A DNA stretch of 35,763 nt, taken from positions 1 through 35,763 of the forward strand of contig JBKAGE010000072.1 in the NCBI GenBank assembly GCA_046290225.1, written 5' to 3'. Source of the stretch: Bradymonadia bacterium (lineage in GTDB: Bacteria; Myxococcota_A; Bradymonadia; UBA7976; UBA1532). Position numbers and translations under genes: made by a program. Below the pieces are notes generated by a model. It saw only the letters and a program-made list of their open reading frames with translations. It had not been told where the DNA came from and searched no databases. Positions 4,347 to 35,763 of the stretch are shown one piece after another; the stretch's first letter is position 1, and every line of letters begins with the position of its first letter.

Positions 4347-5711
4347 TCACGGGCAGCCCTCATCGATGGTGCCGTCGCAGTCCTCGTCCTGACCCTGGCA
4401 GGCGATCTCGCGATCTGCGGGCTGGCCGGGCTCGCAGCTGTCGAAGATGCCCTGAGGACCGCACTGCAGCACGCCTTCACGGGCGCAAGCGCCGATGCCG
4501 CAGTCGGTGACGATCTCCACGTGATCCTCGTCGATCCGACCATCACAGTCGCCGTCGAGGCGATCGCAGAGGTCGTTGGGCAGCGGGTTGCCGGGCTCAC
4601 ATCGGTCCACCACCTCGCCTGCGACGCACCGACGCTCTCCAGTGGCCTGGCAGAACCCGACCCCACACTCGATGAGCGTCACCGGGGCGTCCTCGTCGAT
4701 CTGACCATCACAGTCGTCATCGATGTTGTTGCAGGGATCAGCGGCCTCTCCGCCTGCGGGCTCGCAGATGTTCACCAGCTCGCCATCCGTACAGCGCTGA
4801 GTGCCCTCGTTGACGCAGGCACCGATGCCACACTGGATCACCATGGGCGCGAAGTTTTCGTCGATGCGGCCATCACAGTCGTCATCGATGTTGTTGCAGG
4901 TGGCGTCGTTCGGCGCAGGCTCGCCAGGCATCGCCGAGCAGACAGGGTCAGTGAGGTCAGGCCCGTCACAGCGGAGGATCCCTCGACGCTCACAGGCACC
5001 GACCCCTGTCTGGCAGACCTGATTGACCAGGGCGAAGGCCTCGTCGACCTCACCATCGCAGTCGTTGTCCACCCCGTCGTTCTCGTCGCACCGCTCGGGC
5101 TCTGGCATCCGGGGCTGGGCATCGCAGATGACCATGGTGCCGTCACCATTGCAGATGCGCAGCCCTTCCACCGCGCATCCCCCCGAGCCAGCGGTGCACA
5201 CCTGGCCCACCATGGGGAAGTCTTCGTCGATGAGGCCGTCACAGTCATCGTCGATGCCGTTGCACGTCTCTGCGATGGGTGAGCCTGACTCCGCTCGACA
5301 GATCGGATCCGACTCAGGCTCGTTGGGGTGGCACCTCATGACACCCGGCACGGCGCAGACCCCCTGCCCCACGGTGCACGGCGTATTCAGCTGAGGGTAG
5401 TCCTCGTCAGTACGGCCATCGCAATCGTCGTCGATGTCGTTGCACAGCTCGATCTCCAAACACACCCGGGCATCGGCCTCGGGGTCGAGATCGGGCACAG
5501 GGCCTACGTCACCTGGATTGATGTTGCCGTCAGTGGCGGTAACGCAGCGGTTGGCCACGCAGGCCTGGCCCTCACCACAGACCCCCTCGTCGGGGAAGCA
5601 CTCGGGGATCTCTCCCTCGAAGCTCACGCAGCTGATCACCCCGATGGTGAGGGCCGCGGCCACACCCACAACAGGCAGGTGTCTCGTCAATCGAGGCATG
5701 GACCAGCGCAT
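4347..5711 (-). CDS. Cys-rich repeat lipoprotein carrying about 9 tandem modules of C-N-x-I-D-D-D-C-D-G-x-I-D-E followed by a CxxGxGxC pattern (putative metal-binding MopE-like motif, PF11617 type).
   Basis: Signal/lipobox-like N-terminus (AALTIGVISC). The repeated CNNIDDDCDGRIDE / CNGIDDDCDGLIDE units are read directly. Strong SD AGGAGA sits 4 nt upstream of ATG 5711, which is 10 nt after the stop of the upstream gene. Confidence 0.7.
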   Translation of the reverse strand: MRWSMPRLTRHLPVVGVAAALTIGVISCVSFEGEIPECFPDEGVCGEGQACVANRCVTATDGNINPGDVGPVPDLDPEADARVCLEIELCNDIDDDCDGRTDEDYPQLNTPCTVGQGVCAVPGVMRCHPNEPESDPICRAESGSPIAETCNGIDDDCDGLIDEDFPMVGQVCTAGSGGCAVEGLRICNGDGTMVICDAQPRMPEPERCDENDGVDNDCDGEVDEAFALVNQVCQTGVGACERRGILRCDGPDLTDPVCSAMPGEPAPNDATCNNIDDDCDGRIDENFAPMVIQCGIGACVNEGTQRCTDGELVNICEPAGGEAADPCNNIDDDCDGQIDEDAPVTLIECGVGFCQATGERRCVAGEVVDRCEPGNPLPNDLCDRLDGDCDGRIDEDHVEIVTDCGIGACAREGVLQCGPQGIFDSCEPGQPADREIACQGQDEDCDGTIDEGCP

Positions 5712-15479: not shown

Positions 15480-17264
15480 TTGAAATTTTTCGACGCGCTC
15501 AGGCAATCCTCCACCCCCTTCCTGCTCATGGGCACGATGGTGGTGGCAGGCTGTGGTCAGGAGGGGGTCAGCGATGACCCGGTGACCGGCGGCATGCTCG
15601 GTGAAAACGCCGGCGCCGCTGGCGGCGCTGGCGGCGTGGCCGGTGGCGGTGAAGATCCCCTCGAGCCCATCATGCCCACCTGTGACGCAGGGAACATGGA
15701 TCCCGGCCCCGCGTTGATTCGTCGGCTCACCCGCCAGGAATACAACAACAGCGTCCGCGATCTCTTCGGCTTCGACTCGATGTCCATCGCCGACGAGTTC
15801 CTCCCTGAAGAGGAGATGCTGGGCTTCAACAACCAGGCGGCTTCCCTGCAGGTCTCCCCGGTGCACGTCGAAGAGTACATGAACGCCTCGGAGGCCATCG
15901 CCCGCCGGGCGGTGAGCGAGCGCTACCTCGACCTCGTCGGCGTCGCCCCTGCTGATCTCACCGGCGAAGCCCTCGACGCCTTCATCCTCGACTTCGGCAT
16001 GAAGGTGTGGCGCCGCCCCCTCGAGATGGCCGAGCAGGTGGCGCTCCGAGGCCTCGCCGATCAGGCCGAGGGCCTGATGCCCGACCAGGTCTGGGGCGAG
16101 GCCGCCGTCGAGGTCGTGCTCCGGGCCATGCTGCAGTCGCCGAACTTCCTGTTCCGCATCGAGGTGGGTGAGCCCATGGCCGAGCGCCCGGGTGTCGCCG
16201 CGCTCAACGCCTACGAGATCGCCACTCGCCTGTCGTACCTCATCTGGCAGAGCACCCCCGACGACGCCCTGCTTGAGGCCGCCGGCTCGGGGCGTCTGGT
16301 CACGCCGGAGGAGATTCAGGCGCAGACCCGCCGCATGCTCGAAGACGATCGCGCCCGCTCGGCCATGATGGACTTCTTCGATCAGTGGCTGCGGGTGGGG
16401 CACCTCGAGGAGGTGGATCCTGATCCGAACTACGTAGAGAACTTCGATCCCGAGATCGTGCCCCTCTTCGAGCAGGAGACCCATCGGTTCCTCGAGGCTC
16501 TGGTCTGGGGCGAGGGCACACACGATCTGCGGCAGCTCTTCACCGCCCCCTTCACCTTCGTGAACGCCACCCTCGCCGAGCACTACGGCCTCGACCACCT
16601 CATCGAAGAGGGTGCCGTCGGCGAAGAGTTCACCCGCGTGGCCCTCGACGGCGAGACCCGCCGGGGCGTGCTCACTCAGGCCTCGGTCCTGTCGGTGACG
16701 AGCAAGCCCAACATGACCAACCCCATCGAGCGCGGCCTCTACGTGCGCAGCCAGATCCTGTGTCACGTGCTGCCCTCCCCGCCGGCCGATCTGGCGGTGG
16801 TGGCTCCGGAGCCCGATCTCAGCCGCCCCACCCGGGAGATCTTCGCTCAGCACTCCAACGACAACGCCTGCATCGGCTGTCACTCCCTCATCGATCCCGT
16901 GGGCTTCGCCTTCGAGCACTACGACCCGGTGGGTCGCTGGCGCGACTTCGAGCGCGAGTTCCCTGTGGACGCCAGCGGCGCCCTCACGGCCACCGACGAC
17001 GCCAACGGCGAGTTCTACGGGGTGGTCGAGATGAGCGATCTGCTCGGTGAGTCGGAGCAAGTGCAGCGCTGTATCTCGACCCAGGTCTTCCGCTTTGCCT
17101 TTGGTCGGGGGGAGACTGCAGCCGATGACTGTACTCTGGACGACGCGTACGACCACTATGCAGAGTCCGGGTACGACTTCCTGGCTTTGGTGGAGCACCT
17201 GACGATGAGCGAGGCCTTCCGTTACCGCCGCCTTGACGGCTTCCCCACCGAGGGGGGCCAGTGA
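15480..17264 (+). CDS. DUF1592/DUF1587/DUF1595/DUF1585/DUF1588-family lipoprotein (Planctomycete-type PSD/PSCyt architecture) with a CXXCH heme-binding-like motif.
   Basis: TTG start with AAGGTGGTG RBS. Lipobox LLMGTMVVAGC. Hallmark N-terminal RRLTRQEYNNSVRDLFG. C-terminal CIGCHSLIDPVGFAFEHYD. Confidence 0.8.
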   Translation: MKFFDALRQSSTPFLLMGTMVVAGCGQEGVSDDPVTGGMLGENAGAAGGAGGVAGGGEDPLEPIMPTCDAGNMDPGPALIRRLTRQEYNNSVRDLFGFDSMSIADEFLPEEEMLGFNNQAASLQVSPVHVEEYMNASEAIARRAVSERYLDLVGVAPADLTGEALDAFILDFGMKVWRRPLEMAEQVALRGLADQAEGLMPDQVWGEAAVEVVLRAMLQSPNFLFRIEVGEPMAERPGVAALNAYEIATRLSYLIWQSTPDDALLEAAGSGRLVTPEEIQAQTRRMLEDDRARSAMMDFFDQWLRVGHLEEVDPDPNYVENFDPEIVPLFEQETHRFLEALVWGEGTHDLRQLFTAPFTFVNATLAEHYGLDHLIEEGAVGEEFTRVALDGETRRGVLTQASVLSVTSKPNMTNPIERGLYVRSQILCHVLPSPPADLAVVAPEPDLSRPTREIFAQHSNDNACIGCHSLIDPVGFAFEHYDPVGRWRDFEREFPVDASGALTATDDANGEFYGVVEMSDLLGESEQVQRCISTQVFRFAFGRGETAADDCTLDDAYDHYAESGYDFLALVEHLTMSEAFRYRRLDGFPTEGGQ

Positions 17265-18640
17265 TGTCCAAGTACGGTATGTCGAACGCCAGGATGTCGG
17301 CCACTCGGCGCATCAGCCGCCGCAACTTCATCCGTGGGGCCGCCGGCGGCCTCATGGCCCTGCCCCTTTTGAGCGAGCTCGGCGGCGGCGTGGCCCGGGC
17401 GCAGGCTCAGGAGGCGTTCCCCAAGCGCTTCATCGTCTTCTTCCAGCCCAACGGCACCCTCAAAGAGCTCTGGAGCCCCCAAGGCCAGGGCGCCGACATG
17501 GTGCTGCCGGAGCTGCTGGCTCCCCTCACCCCCTTCAAAGATCAGCTGAACATCTTCGACGGGGTGGACAACACTGTGGGCCACATGGGCCCTGGCGGTC
17601 CGCACCATCGCAGCATTTCTTCGGTGCTCACGGGGGCCATCATCCAAGAGGGTGACTTCGTCTCCAACGACGGCCGCCGTGCCGGCTGGTCCGGTGGCGC
17701 ATCCCTCGATCAGATCATGGTGGACGCCCTGAATCCCCCGACGCAGTTCGGCAGCCTCGAGCTGGGGGTGAACGTCCGCGAGAACGTGCCCATGGGCCGC
17801 ATGATCTACCGCGGCGCAGGTCAGCCTCTGGCCCCGGAGAACGATCCCCGGGCGGCCTACGATCGCTTGTTCTCCATGGTGAGTCAGGCCCCGGGCGAGC
17901 TCGACAAGCTCGCCCTGCAGCGCCGCTCGGTCCTCGATGTGCTTAAGGCCGACTTCAGCCGCCTCAACCGCAAGCTGGCCACCCCAGATCGCGAGAAGCT
18001 GGGGCAGCACCTCGACTCGGTCCGGGCCCTGGAGCGCCGCCTGGGCATTGTGGGCTCAATGAACGACGCCTGCGCCAACCTCGCTCGTCCGCCGGAGATG
18101 GACGTCACCGACGAGGAGCTGATCGAGGCGGTGATGCGCCTTCAGATCGACATTCTGGTGACGGCGATGTCGTGTGATCTGACCCGTATCGGCAGCATCC
18201 AGTCGTCCTCGGCCTTCAACAAGATCCGCTTCAAGTTCCTCGGCCTCGACGATCGCGACGGACACTCGCTGTCACACGCCGGCGACAACAACATGGATCT
18301 CCAAGAGAAGTGGCGCCGCATGCTGACGTGGTACTCCACGCAGTTCGCCTACCTGCTCGAGCGCCTGGCCTCGGTGCCCGAAGGCGACGGCACGATGCTC
18401 GACAACACGATCGTGCTCTGGTGCTCGGAGCTGAGCCGCGGCAACACCCACAACCTGAACGATCTGCCCTTCCTGCTCGCAGGGAAGGGTGGCGGGGCCC
18501 TGCAGACGGGCCGCCACCTGGTCTACGACGGTGTACCCCACAATGATTTGTTGCTGGCGGTGCTGAAGGCCATGGATGTGGAGCAGGCGACGATTGGGCA
18601 TGCGGAGCTTTGCTCTGGGCCTTTGTCCGGAGTGCTTTAA
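17261..18640 (+). CDS. DUF1552 (HXXSHH-family) protein with a twin-arginine signal, the usual partner of DUF1592 proteins.
   Basis: TAT motif RRISRRNFIRGAAGGLMALPLL. HSLSHAGD matches the HxxSHH-type motif. 4-nt overlap with the upstream gene (GTGATG). Confidence 0.8.
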   Translation: MMSKYGMSNARMSATRRISRRNFIRGAAGGLMALPLLSELGGGVARAQAQEAFPKRFIVFFQPNGTLKELWSPQGQGADMVLPELLAPLTPFKDQLNIFDGVDNTVGHMGPGGPHHRSISSVLTGAIIQEGDFVSNDGRRAGWSGGASLDQIMVDALNPPTQFGSLELGVNVRENVPMGRMIYRGAGQPLAPENDPRAAYDRLFSMVSQAPGELDKLALQRRSVLDVLKADFSRLNRKLATPDREKLGQHLDSVRALERRLGIVGSMNDACANLARPPEMDVTDEELIEAVMRLQIDILVTAMSCDLTRIGSIQSSSAFNKIRFKFLGLDDRDGHSLSHAGDNNMDLQEKWRRMLTWYSTQFAYLLERLASVPEGDGTMLDNTIVLWCSELSRGNTHNLNDLPFLLAGKGGGALQTGRHLVYDGVPHNDLLLAVLKAMDVEQATIGHAELCSGPLSGVL

Positions 18641-18641
18641 A

Positions 18642-18704
18642 AGAGAGTTTTCGGGCACGGGCACGGGCACGGGCACGGGCACGAGTTGATTCGGGTGTTG
18701 ACCC
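18642..18704 (+). repeat. Left 63-bp terminal inverted repeat of a 297-bp element: aGAGAGTTTTC-(GGGCAC)x5-GAGTTGATTCGGGTGTTGACCC.
   Basis: Exact reverse complement of 18876-18938. Begins 2 nt after the TAA stop of the DUF1552 gene. Confidence 0.85.
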
Positions 18705-18875
18705 GTGGCCCTGCATGACTCCGCTCGTAGGTGTGTAATGCTCTACTCAGCCCCACGCTCTTCCTCATTGGAGGATTTGTGCTCCATACCTCCAAGACCT
18801 GAAGCCTCAAGCCATTCTGAAACACATCCACTCAGCATCAATGACAACCGTCGCCCTGAGTCCAGGAGGGGCTAC

Positions 18876-18938
18876 GGGTCAACACCCGAATCAACTCGTG
18901 CCCGTGCCCGTGCCCGTGCCCGTGCCCGAAAACTCTCT
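18876..18938 (-). repeat. Right 63-bp terminal inverted repeat (GGGTCAACACCCGAATCAACTC-(GTGCCC)x5-GAAAACTCTCt).
   Basis: Exact reverse complement of 18642-18704. Lies 36 nt downstream of the lipocalin gene stop, with the G-rich strand on that transcript. Confidence 0.85.
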
Positions 18939-18974
18939 CTGCGAGCGAAGCGAGGCCGCCAGGCCCCCTGCCCT

Positions 18975-19490
18975 TCATCTCTGCGGCATCAACTCCAGCT
19001 TCCCCACGGCAAAATGGTTCGCCTTCAGCCGCTCGATGATCCCCACATACACCTTCGGATCCATCTTCGGCGTGCGGGCCATGATCCACAGATGCTTCCG
19101 TGTGGGCTCACTCACCACGGTCCACTGATAGCCCGGGTCGAGATCGATGACCCAATAGTCGTAGTCGAAGAACACATAGAACGTAGACTCGAAGCGACCA
19201 TCCTTGCCATCGCCCTCGCGATCGACTGACCCTTCGAGGGTCTTCAGCTCGCCGTCGAAGCCCCCGATCCAGCACTTGTCCACCAGATCGAACTCGTCTT
19301 CGTCATCGAGGGTGTAGATGGCCTGCATGCCATAGCAGTTCTTCTGCTCGTCTTCGGGGAAGCTGGCGATGACGTACCACGTGCCCATGTACCGCTCGAG
19401 ATCGACCTTCGACACGGCCTCGAGCTTGGGCTTGGCCCAAGCAGTCGAGCACATGCAGAGCATGAACAGGAGAAGTCGCAGGGTGTGCAT
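18975..19490 (-). CDS. blc: Bacterial lipocalin (Blc-like outer-membrane lipoprotein).
   Basis: Lipobox FMLCMCS. Lipocalin SCR1 motif VDLERYMGTWYVIA. C-terminal WTVVSEPTRKHLWIMARTP. GGAG SD 8 nt upstream of ATG 19490 (the ORF extends to 19514). Confidence 0.8.
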   Translation of the reverse strand: MHTLRLLLFMLCMCSTAWAKPKLEAVSKVDLERYMGTWYVIASFPEDEQKNCYGMQAIYTLDDEDEFDLVDKCWIGGFDGELKTLEGSVDREGDGKDGRFESTFYVFFDYDYWVIDLDPGYQWTVVSEPTRKHLWIMARTPKMDPKVYVGIIERLKANHFAVGKLELMPQR

Positions 19491-19537
19491 CGTCGGTCTC
19501 CGTAGCGGTATCATCCCCCAGCGATTGGGAGAGCGAG

Positions 19538-20023
19538 ATGAACCATAACCCGCAACGCACGACGAAACCCAGCCTGTGGCTCATGGTGCCCCTGCGACTG
19601 CTGCAGGCCTTCATCGGGTTGATTCTGCTGGCCACGGCCCTGGGCAAAAGCCTCGACATCCCAGGTTTTGCCGACGTGGTGGGCACTTACCAGGTGCTGC
19701 CGGAATGGAGCTGGATGCTGGTGGCGGTGGGCATGACGGGTTTCGAGTGGGTGCTTGGCGCCTGGCTGCTCTCAGGACGTAAACTGACACAGGCGGCCCT
19801 GGTGAGCGCGGCGCTACACACGGCATTCTTCGGCTGGGCGAGCCTGGCGCTGTATCGCGGGCTCGAGCTGTCCAACTGTGGATGCTTCGGGGTGTTCCTG
19901 GCCCGGCCGCTGACGACGGCGACGCTGTGGGAGGACGGCTTCATGGTGGGGTTCTCGCTAGCGCTGGCGCTGCTGGCGAGGCTGCACACATGCTCGATGA
20001 CCCAGCCTGCCCTCTCCTCATGA
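19538..20023 (+). CDS. MauE/DoxX-like small integral membrane protein (CGCFG motif).
   Basis: 161 aa, 4 predicted TM helices. Motif SNCGCFGVFLARPL is characteristic of the MauE family (from memory). GGGAGAGCGAG SD. Confidence 0.6.
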   Translation: MNHNPQRTTKPSLWLMVPLRLLQAFIGLILLATALGKSLDIPGFADVVGTYQVLPEWSWMLVAVGMTGFEWVLGAWLLSGRKLTQAALVSAALHTAFFGWASLALYRGLELSNCGCFGVFLARPLTTATLWEDGFMVGFSLALALLARLHTCSMTQPALSS

Positions 20024-20048
20024 CGACATCCCAGGTCTATCTTGATGC

Positions 20049-20588
20049 TTACAAGCCCAGTTGCTTCACCATCGTGGGAAAGTCCGGAGCGACAACCTGC
20101 CAAATAGGCACCAGGGAGTCCGATAATACTGATGAGCCGCGCTTTTCTGGAATCGCCTTCCAATAGTTGCACAGAACCTGTGGTCTCTCCATGGAGTTGC
20201 GGTAATCCAACACCAAGCTGGAATCATCTCCAATCTCGAACTCGGCTAAATCAATGGCCAGATCCATATCCAAGCCCCGTGCAGCCCCCATTCCATTGTT
20301 CGCAGCCAGCCAGTAGCTCGGGTTTGCGAGTGCACTCTCGCGCACAGTCAGAAAGGGCGGTGATAGCAAATAGATGGCATCTCGCAAACAAAATGCACTG
20401 ACTTGTGCCCGAGGCACCCATTGAGCCTCATATTGCTGAGTACTCGCTTCCTCTGAGTTCTTGGGCCAGCGGCCTGTATTGAGCATCTCGAGCAGTAAAG
20501 GCGGAAGTGGAAGAGTGTATTTATACATGCATGAGCCTCCAAAGCTCACCGCAGAGATATCACCCAATAGAAGACGAGCATACCCCAC
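20049..20588 (-). CDS. Low-GC hypothetical protein, possibly a SUKH/SMI1-KNR4-like immunity-type protein (alternative start at 20528, MYKYTLPLPP).
   Basis: Distinctly AT-richer codon usage than its neighbours. Motifs LPLPPLLLEMLNTG, DSSLVLDY and C-terminal FPTMVKQLGL resemble the SUKH-1 pattern (from memory, weak). Confidence 0.4.
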   Translation of the reverse strand: MGYARLLLGDISAVSFGGSCMYKYTLPLPPLLLEMLNTGRWPKNSEEASTQQYEAQWVPRAQVSAFCLRDAIYLLSPPFLTVRESALANPSYWLAANNGMGAARGLDMDLAIDLAEFEIGDDSSLVLDYRNSMERPQVLCNYWKAIPEKRGSSVLSDSLVPIWQVVAPDFPTMVKQLGL

Positions 20589-20902
20589 CGTCTTCGACGA
20601 GCCCGGGGCAGCTCAACCCACCAAGTCGAGCCTACTGGAGTGAGGCTCATATGGAATGAGTATTTTGTCTGGCCGCAGTTCACCACCCCACAATTTCCTC
20701 ATCCATGACGTACCACAACAACACGCAGTCTACGTCCTGAGCACCCATAGAGAGAGCACCGCGTAGAGGCGGAGGCCTCGGGAGTGGGCGGCTGCGTCGT
20801 GAGGCGTGGTGGCTGAGTGGTGACTCAACCGCAGGCGCAGCAGCGCTGCGTCGAGGATTGCGGCGCCGCTCAGACGCCGCGCATCGCGGGGCAGACGCCC
20901 GC

Positions 20903-21670
20903 TCACGGGGCCGGAGCCTCGGAGCCCCAACGAATGTACCAGGACACAATCCCGCCCCAGCCATCCAACGGCACCCGAGCGTAGCTATAGAACACATCCA
21001 GGTTCAGCAGCGCCGACGACGTTGGCCAGCCTTCCAAGATCACCCCACCGCTCACGCGGTTTGGGATCACCCCCTGCCCACGGATGCGGCCCACCGTGTG
21101 CTCCCCGTAACCCCACCAGGACACCCCTTGCCCCGGCAACGCGCCGGCGAAGCGGTACATCAGGGCCGAGGCCTGCTCGATGGACCACTCCTCGTCCAGA
21201 ATCAGATCTCGAAAGATCTCCTCCTGGCGGAAGCCTCGGTGGCGATACACCCCTGTCGTGCGGCTATAGAGCCACCAGTCCGACGTGCGGATGTTGAGGT
21301 TCATCTGAGGGCGGACCAGCCAGCGCAGGCCGTAGGTGCGGGTGGTCACGTCGCCTTTCCCCTGATCAGGGCCCAGCTTCAGAAAAAAACCCGGCTCCGC
21401 CCCCGCGTCCACGTGGAACTCCAGCCAGGCCGGATCCGTCTTGTAGCTGAGCTGTACCCCCAGGCCGTTGGCGAAGACCAGCCACTCGTTGTAGAGCGCC
21501 AGCCCGAAGCCATCATCCCCGACGTCCCAGCCCGCGTCGTAGCGGAGGAACAGGCCTTCAGGGTTCACGATGAGCGCGCCCGTGAGAGTGTGGTGGGGAT
21601 CATCAGCGAGGACTGGAGAGGCGGCGAGGGCCCCGAGCGCGACGAGGGCGCTCGGGAGGGCGCGGATCAC
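20903..21670 (-). CDS. Secreted hypothetical protein (signal peptide, Trp/Gly-rich); last gene of the radical-SAM operon.
   Basis: Signal ALGALAASPVLADD. The start overlaps the stop of the DUF547 gene by 4 nt. No domain recognised. Confidence 0.55.
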   Translation of the reverse strand: MIRALPSALVALGALAASPVLADDPHHTLTGALIVNPEGLFLRYDAGWDVGDDGFGLALYNEWLVFANGLGVQLSYKTDPAWLEFHVDAGAEPGFFLKLGPDQGKGDVTTRTYGLRWLVRPQMNLNIRTSDWWLYSRTTGVYRHRGFRQEEIFRDLILDEEWSIEQASALMYRFAGALPGQGVSWWGYGEHTVGRIRGQGVIPNRVSGGVILEGWPTSSALLNLDVFYSYARVPLDGWGGIVSWYIRWGSEAPAP

Positions 21671-35742: not shown

Positions 35743-35763
35743 TCGGGCCTGGCGGCCAGCAGG

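Follow-up and report, generated by a model that had tools for sequence, protein, structure and literature searches.

Small palindromic repeats that lie between bacterial genes have been described under several names. Miniature inverted-repeat transposable elements (MITEs) of bacteria, among them the Correia elements (CREE) of Neisseria, Nezha and RUP, are small non-coding intergenic sequences with terminal inverted repeats of typically 15-40 nt; they are present at a site in some genomes and absent from it in others, form a hairpin in the transcript and have shorter derivatives with the same ends. Repetitive extragenic palindromic (REP) sequences, the bacterial interspersed mosaic elements (BIMEs) built from them and the REP doublets called REPINs are extragenic, often lie past stop codons or between converging genes, consist of inverted units with a spacer, make no target duplication, occur as singlets as well as doublets, and stabilise or terminate transcript ends. 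Indeed REP, enterobacterial repetitive intergenic consensus (ERIC) and Correia-type repeats are known blockers of read-through and protectors of 3' ends. Foldback (FB) transposons, which to our knowledge have been described in eukaryotes only, have very long inverted arms made of short tandem subrepeats around a non-coding middle. Here we analyse a 297-bp palindromic element with hexanucleotide arrays in its arms, found at positions 18642-18938 of a contig from a Bradymonadia metagenome-assembled genome (MAG; assembly GCA_046290225.1, contig JBKAGE010000072.1), the whole 35,763-nt stretch being referred to below as the window. The element is missing from the corresponding sites of relatives and shares its termini with a second, short copy. 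We consider it most likely to be a selfish palindromic repeat of small size, able to fold into a giant hairpin; its assignment, as a lineage-specific non-coding repeat, to the MITE, REPIN or foldback kind is an even call, and the view that it is or was mobile is about equally balanced.

Anatomy of the palindrome and its predicted hairpin

The original prediction described a 297-bp unit bounded by perfect 63-bp inverted repeats with five GGGCAC hexamers each. A repeat finder agrees and extends the arms to 70 nt (18642-18711 and 18869-18938), 99% complementary to each other with 157 nt between them. The outer 63 nt (18642-18704 and 18876-18938) are perfectly complementary and the sole mismatch, G versus A, lies just inside them. 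Each arm is laid out as A-GAGAGTTTTC-(GGGCAC)5-GAGTTGATTCGGGTGTTGACCC and continues inward as GT(G/A)GCCC, and the number of hexamers is the same on both sides, 5 and 5. The left arm, of the form AGAGAGTTTTC-(GGGCAC)5-GAGTTGATTCGGGTGTTGACCCGTGGCCC, begins 1 nt past the TAA (18638-18640) of a gene for a DUF1552 protein and holds its hexanucleotide array at 18653-18682, where the + strand has the canonical G3N3 pattern of a potential quadruplex. The right arm is the reverse complement of the left one with the single inner-end mismatch; its array at 18898-18927 reads (GTGCCC)5 on the + strand, that is (GGGCAC)5 on the - strand, and the arm ends 36 nt before the stop codon (18975-18977) of a converging lipocalin gene. 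The termini of the element are a 7-nt inverted pair, AGAGAGT...ACTCTCT. Chance is excluded as a source of the arrays and of the 22-nt inner arm segment, since the 18-mer (GGGCAC)3 occurs 8 times in the window against 0.03 expected from shuffles and the inner segment twice against an expectation of 0. Neither the rest of the window nor about 100 kb of related sequence yielded another long inverted repeat.

The unique core between the arms (157 nt, 18712-18868) is AT-richer than its surroundings, as had been claimed: its GC content is 0.53, or 0.53-0.55 depending on the limits taken, versus 0.65 for the window. Searches gave it neither a homolog nor an Rfam match, and a scan for sigma-70-like promoters found no promoter-like site in it. 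All it holds in the way of structure is one weak terminator-like hairpin (18759-18775) with a T-rich tail reaching 18785, together with a short hydrophobic open reading frame (ORF) of 23 codons (18731-18802, VCNALLSPTLFLIGGFVLHTSKT). None of the ORFs in or crossing the element has a homolog and those crossing it are, as first supposed, merely translations of the repeat. The two longest core ORFs found no match among 5.8 billion predicted proteins, not even to themselves, and it follows that no gene caller has called them. Rfam 15 returned no family either for the window and nine related loci at the gathering score or for the element and a metagenome locus (L009) at E<=5, the best sub-threshold match being Fibro-purF with 16.8 bits against a threshold of 60. 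Nor are the arrays clustered regularly interspaced short palindromic repeats (CRISPR), which have repeats of 23-50 nt and unique spacers; they are contiguous 6-nt units without spacers, and on this point the first assessment was right.

Folding of the element as RNA gives -204 and -211 kcal/mol for the two strands (z -18.1 and -17.3), and z is -19.6 for DNA. The pairing of the arms into a 63-bp stem had been foreseen, and the predicted stem is in fact about 70 bp long with about -205 kcal/mol; it beats a G-quadruplex (G4) whenever both arms are present.

Empty sites in relatives and a short second copy

The spacer past the DUF1552 stop codon is 334 nt long in the window versus 24-33 nt in four relatives, and the window spacer without the element would be 37 nt. 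L017, a contig from a different sample whose DUF1552 protein is 82% identical, keeps the order DUF1552-lipocalin-MauE with 31 nt between the stop codons, and this spacer contains only a small 8-bp GC hairpin (GAGCGCGC...GCGCGCTC); the lipocalin is truncated there to its last ~35 codons, which abut the start of MauE. In L016 (DUF1552 84% identical) the next converging gene is 24 nt away and the whole segment corresponding to 18.6-21.7 kb is missing, and the spacers in L021 and L030 (52-56% identical) are 24 and 33 nt long. These short spacers identify the 297 bp as a lineage-specific insertion placed exactly at a stop codon. The 24-nt spacer of L016 contains a direct 8-mer, GGCCCGCA, twice.

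A short copy of the element, 38 nt long and referred to here as the solo, is located at 83-120 on the - strand. It reads AGAGAGT-CC(GTGCCC)3GAAAACTCTCT and is bounded by the 7-nt inverted termini of the full element. It had been recognised as a partial copy with a CTCTCT closing stem, which is borne out by 32 nt of identity with the outer end of the right arm and by the AGAGAGT...ACTCTCT ends. Within 35.7 kb, the AGAGAGT and ACTCTCT 7-mers occur only at the full element and at the solo. The solo sits 30 nt past the stop (151-153) of a 296-aa gene at 151-1041 on the - strand, and its site is likewise empty in a relative, L020, which has a 72-nt spacer and no hexamer array. It had been stated that all copies lie 2-36 nt past stop codons with the G-rich strand in sense orientation. 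The measured distances are 1, 36 and 30 nt and the G-rich strand is indeed the sense strand of the adjoining gene at all three copies, but the arms of a palindrome depend on each other, so that the pattern amounts to two observations and not three.

Several further features of the solo are worth recording. Together with the left arm it forms a perfect 31-nt inverted pair (90-120 and 18642-18672) 18.5 kb apart, a potential substrate for inversion of a segment that carries kinase, glycoside hydrolase, ABC/ZnuA and DUF1592/DUF1552 genes. A further canonical G4 motif, GGGGACTGGGGGGGCGTTGGGG (184-205, - strand), falls within the 3'-terminal part of the 296-aa gene on the same strand, ~65 nt upstream of the solo. 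At the orthologous site of the relative (L020:4596-4667) we find GATTTTTC followed by a hairpin, GGTAGACC-CCC-GGTCTACC, in place of the GAGTTTTC and GGGCAC array of the window; the string (G)A(G/T)TTTTCGG common to both could be ancestral sequence underlying the array, or a chance resemblance.

Of the features that define MITEs the full element has the terminal inverted repeats, the small non-coding size and the empty sites, and lacks the target-site duplication. It is also like them in its intergenic position, in the predicted transcript hairpin and in the existence of a shorter derivative with the same ends, and unlike them in the length of its 70-nt arms and the hexanucleotide microsatellite inside these. 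With REP sequences, BIMEs and REPINs, which are mobilised by REP-associated tyrosine transposases (RAYTs), it shares the extragenic setting past a stop codon and between converging genes, the arrangement of two inverted units around a spacer, the lack of a target duplication and the occurrence of a singlet, namely the solo. However, the unit AGAGAGTTTTC(GGGCAC)n lacks both self-complementarity and a conserved 5' GTAG, the 157-nt spacer is longer, and no RAYT gene is present in the ~38 kb examined. The closest match to the design with microsatellites in the arms is provided by the FB transposons, the likeness being one of design rather than of evident homology or a shared enzyme.

Recurrence of the array junction in distant genomes

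The exact 20-mer GAGTTTTC(GGGCAC)2 was searched in 185,579 species representatives and 241 million metagenome records, and matched 5 of the former and 7 of the latter. Three matches (L002, L004 and L014) have two units only and are of the chance type. About nine are real intergenic arrays, found in a Polyangiaceae MAG (L001), a Planctomycetota MAG (L003), a 'Deltaproteobacteria' MAG (L005) and the metagenome contigs L008-L013, next to unrelated housekeeping genes. Beyond the search pattern the array ends in GTTTAC in L009, L010, L011 and L013, and in GTTTAT in L012. Towards the upstream gene the arrays present a G-rich strand in the window, L005 and L001 and a C-rich one in L013, L011 and L012, while the arrays of L003 and L010 lie upstream of genes. 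The L012 contig has a GC content of 43%, and the GC-rich unit is thus clearly foreign to its surroundings there.

In L009, L010 and L013 a second, inverted array of GGGCAC hexamers follows 85-166 nt away, and these paired units fold into long hairpins (z about -7.4). Such metagenome palindromes (with L008 and L011 as partial cases) resemble the window's element in GGGCAC itself, in the 8-nt GAGTTTTC, in the inverted arrays around a core of 90-170 nt, in their intergenic position and in the long predicted hairpin. They differ from it in that their outer ends are GTTTAC and a G-run and not AGAGAG, and in that their arms are imperfect with unequal repeat numbers. These loci also share a core hairpin, GGGCUGCC-loop-GGCRGCYC, which is absent from the window's core. 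Above all they are its mirror image, their C-rich array being the 5' one and GAGTTTTC lying on the core side. The opposite polarity means that the resemblance is one of design plus a short shared module, and common descent with the window's element is not demonstrated. A family of such repeats, as originally proposed, depended on the motif recurring elsewhere; the outer junction does recur in intergenic DNA, though sparsely.

Some details of the recurring loci stand on their own. The distinct palindrome family is represented by L009:520-775, L010:1-343, L011:1-213 and L013:2525-2874, and its order is (GTGCCC)n, a CT-rich tract, GGGCUGCC-loop-GGCRGCYC, TGCAC-NN-GTGCG, GAGTTTTC(GGGCAC)nGTTTAC and a G-run. 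L009 and L011 share in addition the module GTGAAYA..GCGCCC..CGAGGTGCGCTGCTGGAT, and the contigs L010 and L011 both terminate precisely at GTGAAT, which hints at another repeated module where assemblies break. At L013:2698-2790 (GGGCAC)3 runs in phase into (GTTTAC)4 and GTGTAC. The hexamers vary across the arrays (GGGTAC, GGGAAC, GGACAC, GCTTAC) with ACG every 6 nt as the constant part, a pattern suggestive of a periodic constraint more than of a simple microsatellite. L012:1647-1760 contains ATAAAC-GTGCCC-GTGTCC-GTACCC-(GTGCCC)2-GAAAACTC in a 113-nt spacer upstream of a dnaB-like gene; the unit follows a promoter-like TTGCAA-16-TATAGT and in the dnaB reading frame would read VPVSVPVPVPENS.

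One may speculate, and we do so with considerable reserve, that GAGTTTTC-(GGGCAC)n-(GTTTAC) is the recognition module of undescribed bacterial elements of the foldback type with microsatellite-array arms, or else a periodic protein-binding array, that has spread horizontally over Myxococcota, Planctomycetota and at least one low-GC lineage. The Bradymonadia element would then be one of two mirror-image architectures.

Mobility weighed against other explanations

If the element is a selfish palindromic repeat, it would have inserted, or have been copied in, directly past the DUF1552 stop codon, and the solo would be a short or internally deleted member with the same termini. As the element has no gene of its own, any movement would have to rely on an enzyme encoded elsewhere in the genome. 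The suggestion of a non-autonomous mobile element made at the outset is thus upheld in part: the insertion is non-coding, its defined termini are shared with the solo, and the sites are empty in relatives. The other part found no support, and a number of results weigh against mobility. No direct repeat of 3 nt or more, as expected of a target-site duplication, was found at boundary offsets of +/-4 nt for either the full element or the solo, the sole candidate, GAG, lying inside the arms. Neither the core nor the inner 29 nt of the arms matched anything else in related loci, viral contigs, plasmids, phages or the 5.8 billion predicted proteins. Genes for a transposase, recombinase or reverse transcriptase are absent from the window and from 2.3 kb beyond it. 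The GGGCAC array is missing from ~260 kb (redundant) of DUF1552-bearing relatives, as is any long perfect inverted repeat; the junction 20-mer is as rare as stated above, its palindromes elsewhere have the opposite polarity, and an inverted duplication made locally and recently would be just as expected to leave perfect arms.

The count of copies is one full and one 38-nt copy in ~38 kb of this genome, with no further copy in the 2.3 kb beyond the window (L018). Comparison of the element with plasmids and phages by blastn gave no match, and scans of viral contigs with patterns for the junction, the inner arm and the array plus GTTTAC gave nothing. A full-text literature search for the hexamer dimer returned unrelated mouse primers only, and topical literature searches returned no description of such an element.

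The serious rival, and the main one, is a local inverted duplication without mobility. A 70-bp piece from the 3' end of DUF1552 that included a GGGCAC microsatellite would have been copied in inverted orientation around a pre-existing spacer, by replication template switching or hairpin-mediated repair, and the arms would be either very young or kept identical by intramolecular gene conversion. This would account for the perfect arms with their repeat numbers of 5 and 5, for the failure to find a target-site duplication, for the uniqueness of the core and inner arm and for the lack of a transposase gene nearby, and the element does mark the edge of a rearrangement-prone, lower-GC segment that varies among relatives. 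That segment (18641-21666, GC 0.52-0.60) carries the lipocalin and MauE genes, a 159-aa ORF and a gene for a 255-aa secreted protein, and is partly present in L017. However, such a duplication needs ~230 nt of pre-existing arm and core where L017 has 31 nt, the solo 18.5 kb away bears both termini, AGAGAGT and ACTCTCT, and the paired-array architecture recurs in unrelated contigs. On these grounds we regard local duplication as rather unlikely, while taking it more seriously than any other alternative.

What a selfish palindromic repeat would do at this place can be suggested from the folding. Transcripts from either of the converging genes would form the ~70-bp stem, and this may halt read-through into the opposing gene and shield the 3' ends from exonucleases. 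In being a perfect GC-rich stem between converging stop codons, with UUUU on the lipocalin strand, the element resembles bidirectional intrinsic terminators, including the 'I-shaped' hairpins without a U-tract of high-GC bacteria. Unlike these it has a stem of 70 bp and a loop of 157 nt, compared with 5-15 bp and 3-8 nt, and no U-run on the DUF1552 strand. The tail after the stem is UUUUAAAG, with its UUUU run, on the - (lipocalin) strand only; on the + strand it is CUGCGAG. A scan for consensus intrinsic terminators found none at the arms, and with the long loop and the one-sided UUUU the initial notion of a terminator module is weakened. The lipocalin gene has a small GC hairpin of its own, GGCCUGGCGGCC (18954-18965, - strand), 10 nt past its stop and outside the element, which is possibly its native terminator stem. 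This hairpin and the 8-bp one of relatives indicate that the element is dispensable, which fits a selfish or neutral insertion.

A 12-mer mini-hairpin, GGCCTGGCGGCC, is present at 18954-18965 (-) and at 35746-35757 (+), 10 and 4 nt past the lipocalin and BamA stops respectively, both genes being members of converging pairs. It may be the ordinary terminator stem of this genome, its count not being significant by shuffling.

A second alternative is that the element is a selected module of the 3' untranslated region (3'-UTR), whose G-rich array acts as an RNA or DNA G4, or as the site of a protein reading ACG every 6 nt, to control termination, mRNA stability or transcription-replication conflicts. 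Both arms contain the canonical G3N3 motif (four tracts of three or more G with N1-7) and make up 2 of the 6 such motifs in the window, the G-rich strand is sense at all three copies in the window, conservation of the unit GAGTTTTC-(GGGCAC)n-GTTTAC extends to L012 with its 43% GC, and GGGCAC and GTTTAC arrays abut in phase in L013. The claim that every copy has a four-tract G4 is nevertheless true of the arms only, for the solo has three GGG tracts and one GG and is no canonical four-tract G4. Moreover ViennaRNA with G4 terms predicts a gain of 1.7 kcal/mol (-48.7 versus -47.0) for the isolated right arm alone and leaves the minimum free energy of the left arm, the solo and the whole element unchanged; in such models a G4 could be only transient, on the G-rich 5' arm before the complementary arm has been transcribed. 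The orientation is inconsistent elsewhere, with the C-rich strand in L013, L011 and L012 and the position upstream of genes in L003 and L010, and the corresponding genes of close relatives lack the module. The family of 3'-UTR G4 modules envisaged originally is therefore not sustained by its marginal G4, and we judge a selected module to be improbable.

Much less probable still is an inverton, in which a site-specific recombinase would flip the 157-bp core between the 70-bp repeats and so reorient a promoter or terminator. The geometry of long perfect inverted repeats around a short AT-richer segment fits, but known invertons have much shorter repeats than 70 bp, the scan of the core gave no sigma-70-like promoter, both neighbours point inward so that a flipped promoter would yield antisense RNA only, the window has no invertase gene and the solo has nothing to invert. 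We give as little credence to a core encoding a small RNA or a small hydrophobic peptide (for example 18731-18802) with the arms as insulators. The internal hairpin with its T-rich tail (18759-18785) and the short hydrophobic ORF speak for it; the core has no promoter-like site, no convincing ribosome-binding site, no Rfam match and no homolog of its ORFs, and the proposal of a small-RNA locus finds no support.

The least credible explanation of all is that the MAG contig contains a chimeric fold-back join produced by assembly: mis-assembly classically gives rise to palindromes and the element interior is present only in the MAG contig, but both outer junctions are reproduced by Logan, the flanking genes are neighbours also in L017, the arms have different unique flanks and the core is unique and non-palindromic. 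The Logan check was independent and used k=31 contigs assembled from the same reads (run SRR22269038). At the left (L015) and right (L019) junctions contigs terminate inside the arm, and another (L007) does so inside the solo, which reproduces all three junctions independently and shows that the arms behave as repeated k-mers; the positions of contig ends are not interpretable as copy number.

Several further candidates were tried and rejected. GGGCACG resembles the -24 box TGGCACG of sigma-54 promoters, with the -12 GC out of register. The 38-bp inverted repeat of the Tn3 family shares GGGTC...GAAAACTC, and its polarity would place the transposon outside the element. For GTAAGCG ends of the IS66 type, considered for the metagenome family, there is no 8-bp duplication; for the TTAC or TTGAT target logic of IS200/IS605 no such insertion sequence is present, and for a retron no reverse transcriptase. 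No match to parS was seen. Tails added by stop-codon read-through were discarded because the frame differs among the three copies. The left arm does lie in frame with DUF1552, and read-through of the TAA would append a His-rich tail, KRVFGHGHGHGHGHELIRVLTRGPA; given the other frames at the other two copies this is probably coincidental.

As to the remaining features of the window, the DUF1552 (HXXSHH) gene flanking the element (17261-18640, +) encodes a protein 100% identical to one from a Bradymonadia MAG on a 112-kb contig, and the converging gene (18975-19490, -) encodes a Lipocalin_2 (Blc-like) lipoprotein whose 171-aa version is the call of the Logan assembly. The Logan contigs L019 and L018 are not joined over ~32 nt (window 20819-20852 / 20871-20911), beside a 19-nt tandem repeat present twice (CAGACGCCGCGCATCACGGGG), where the gap may reflect a strain polymorphism or another small repeat. 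A 454-aa ORF (4347-5711) contains, at 4485-5266 on the - strand, four diverged tandem coding repeats of 165 nt (55 codons); their motifs are of a conserved ...CDGxIDEDxP... type and the product looks like a Cys/Asp-rich repeat protein.

Whatever their origin, elements of this kind break short-read assemblies, as happened here, and their perfect inverted repeats of 31-70 nt can drive inversions or deletions, while the very strong hairpins that they place at transcript ends are ignored by annotation pipelines. Were the element only a local duplication it would be a curiosity, and the recurrence across phyla is the one aspect that could make more of it. The sparse reappearance of a 20-26-nt junction in the non-coding DNA of distant phyla is indeed difficult to account for unless there was horizontal movement or a binding partner in common. 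We know of no earlier description of a microsatellite-armed palindromic repeat in bacteria. If the element is mobile, it would add a bacterial palindromic repeat with hexanucleotide-microsatellite arms to those described, in the poorly studied predatory Bradymonadia.

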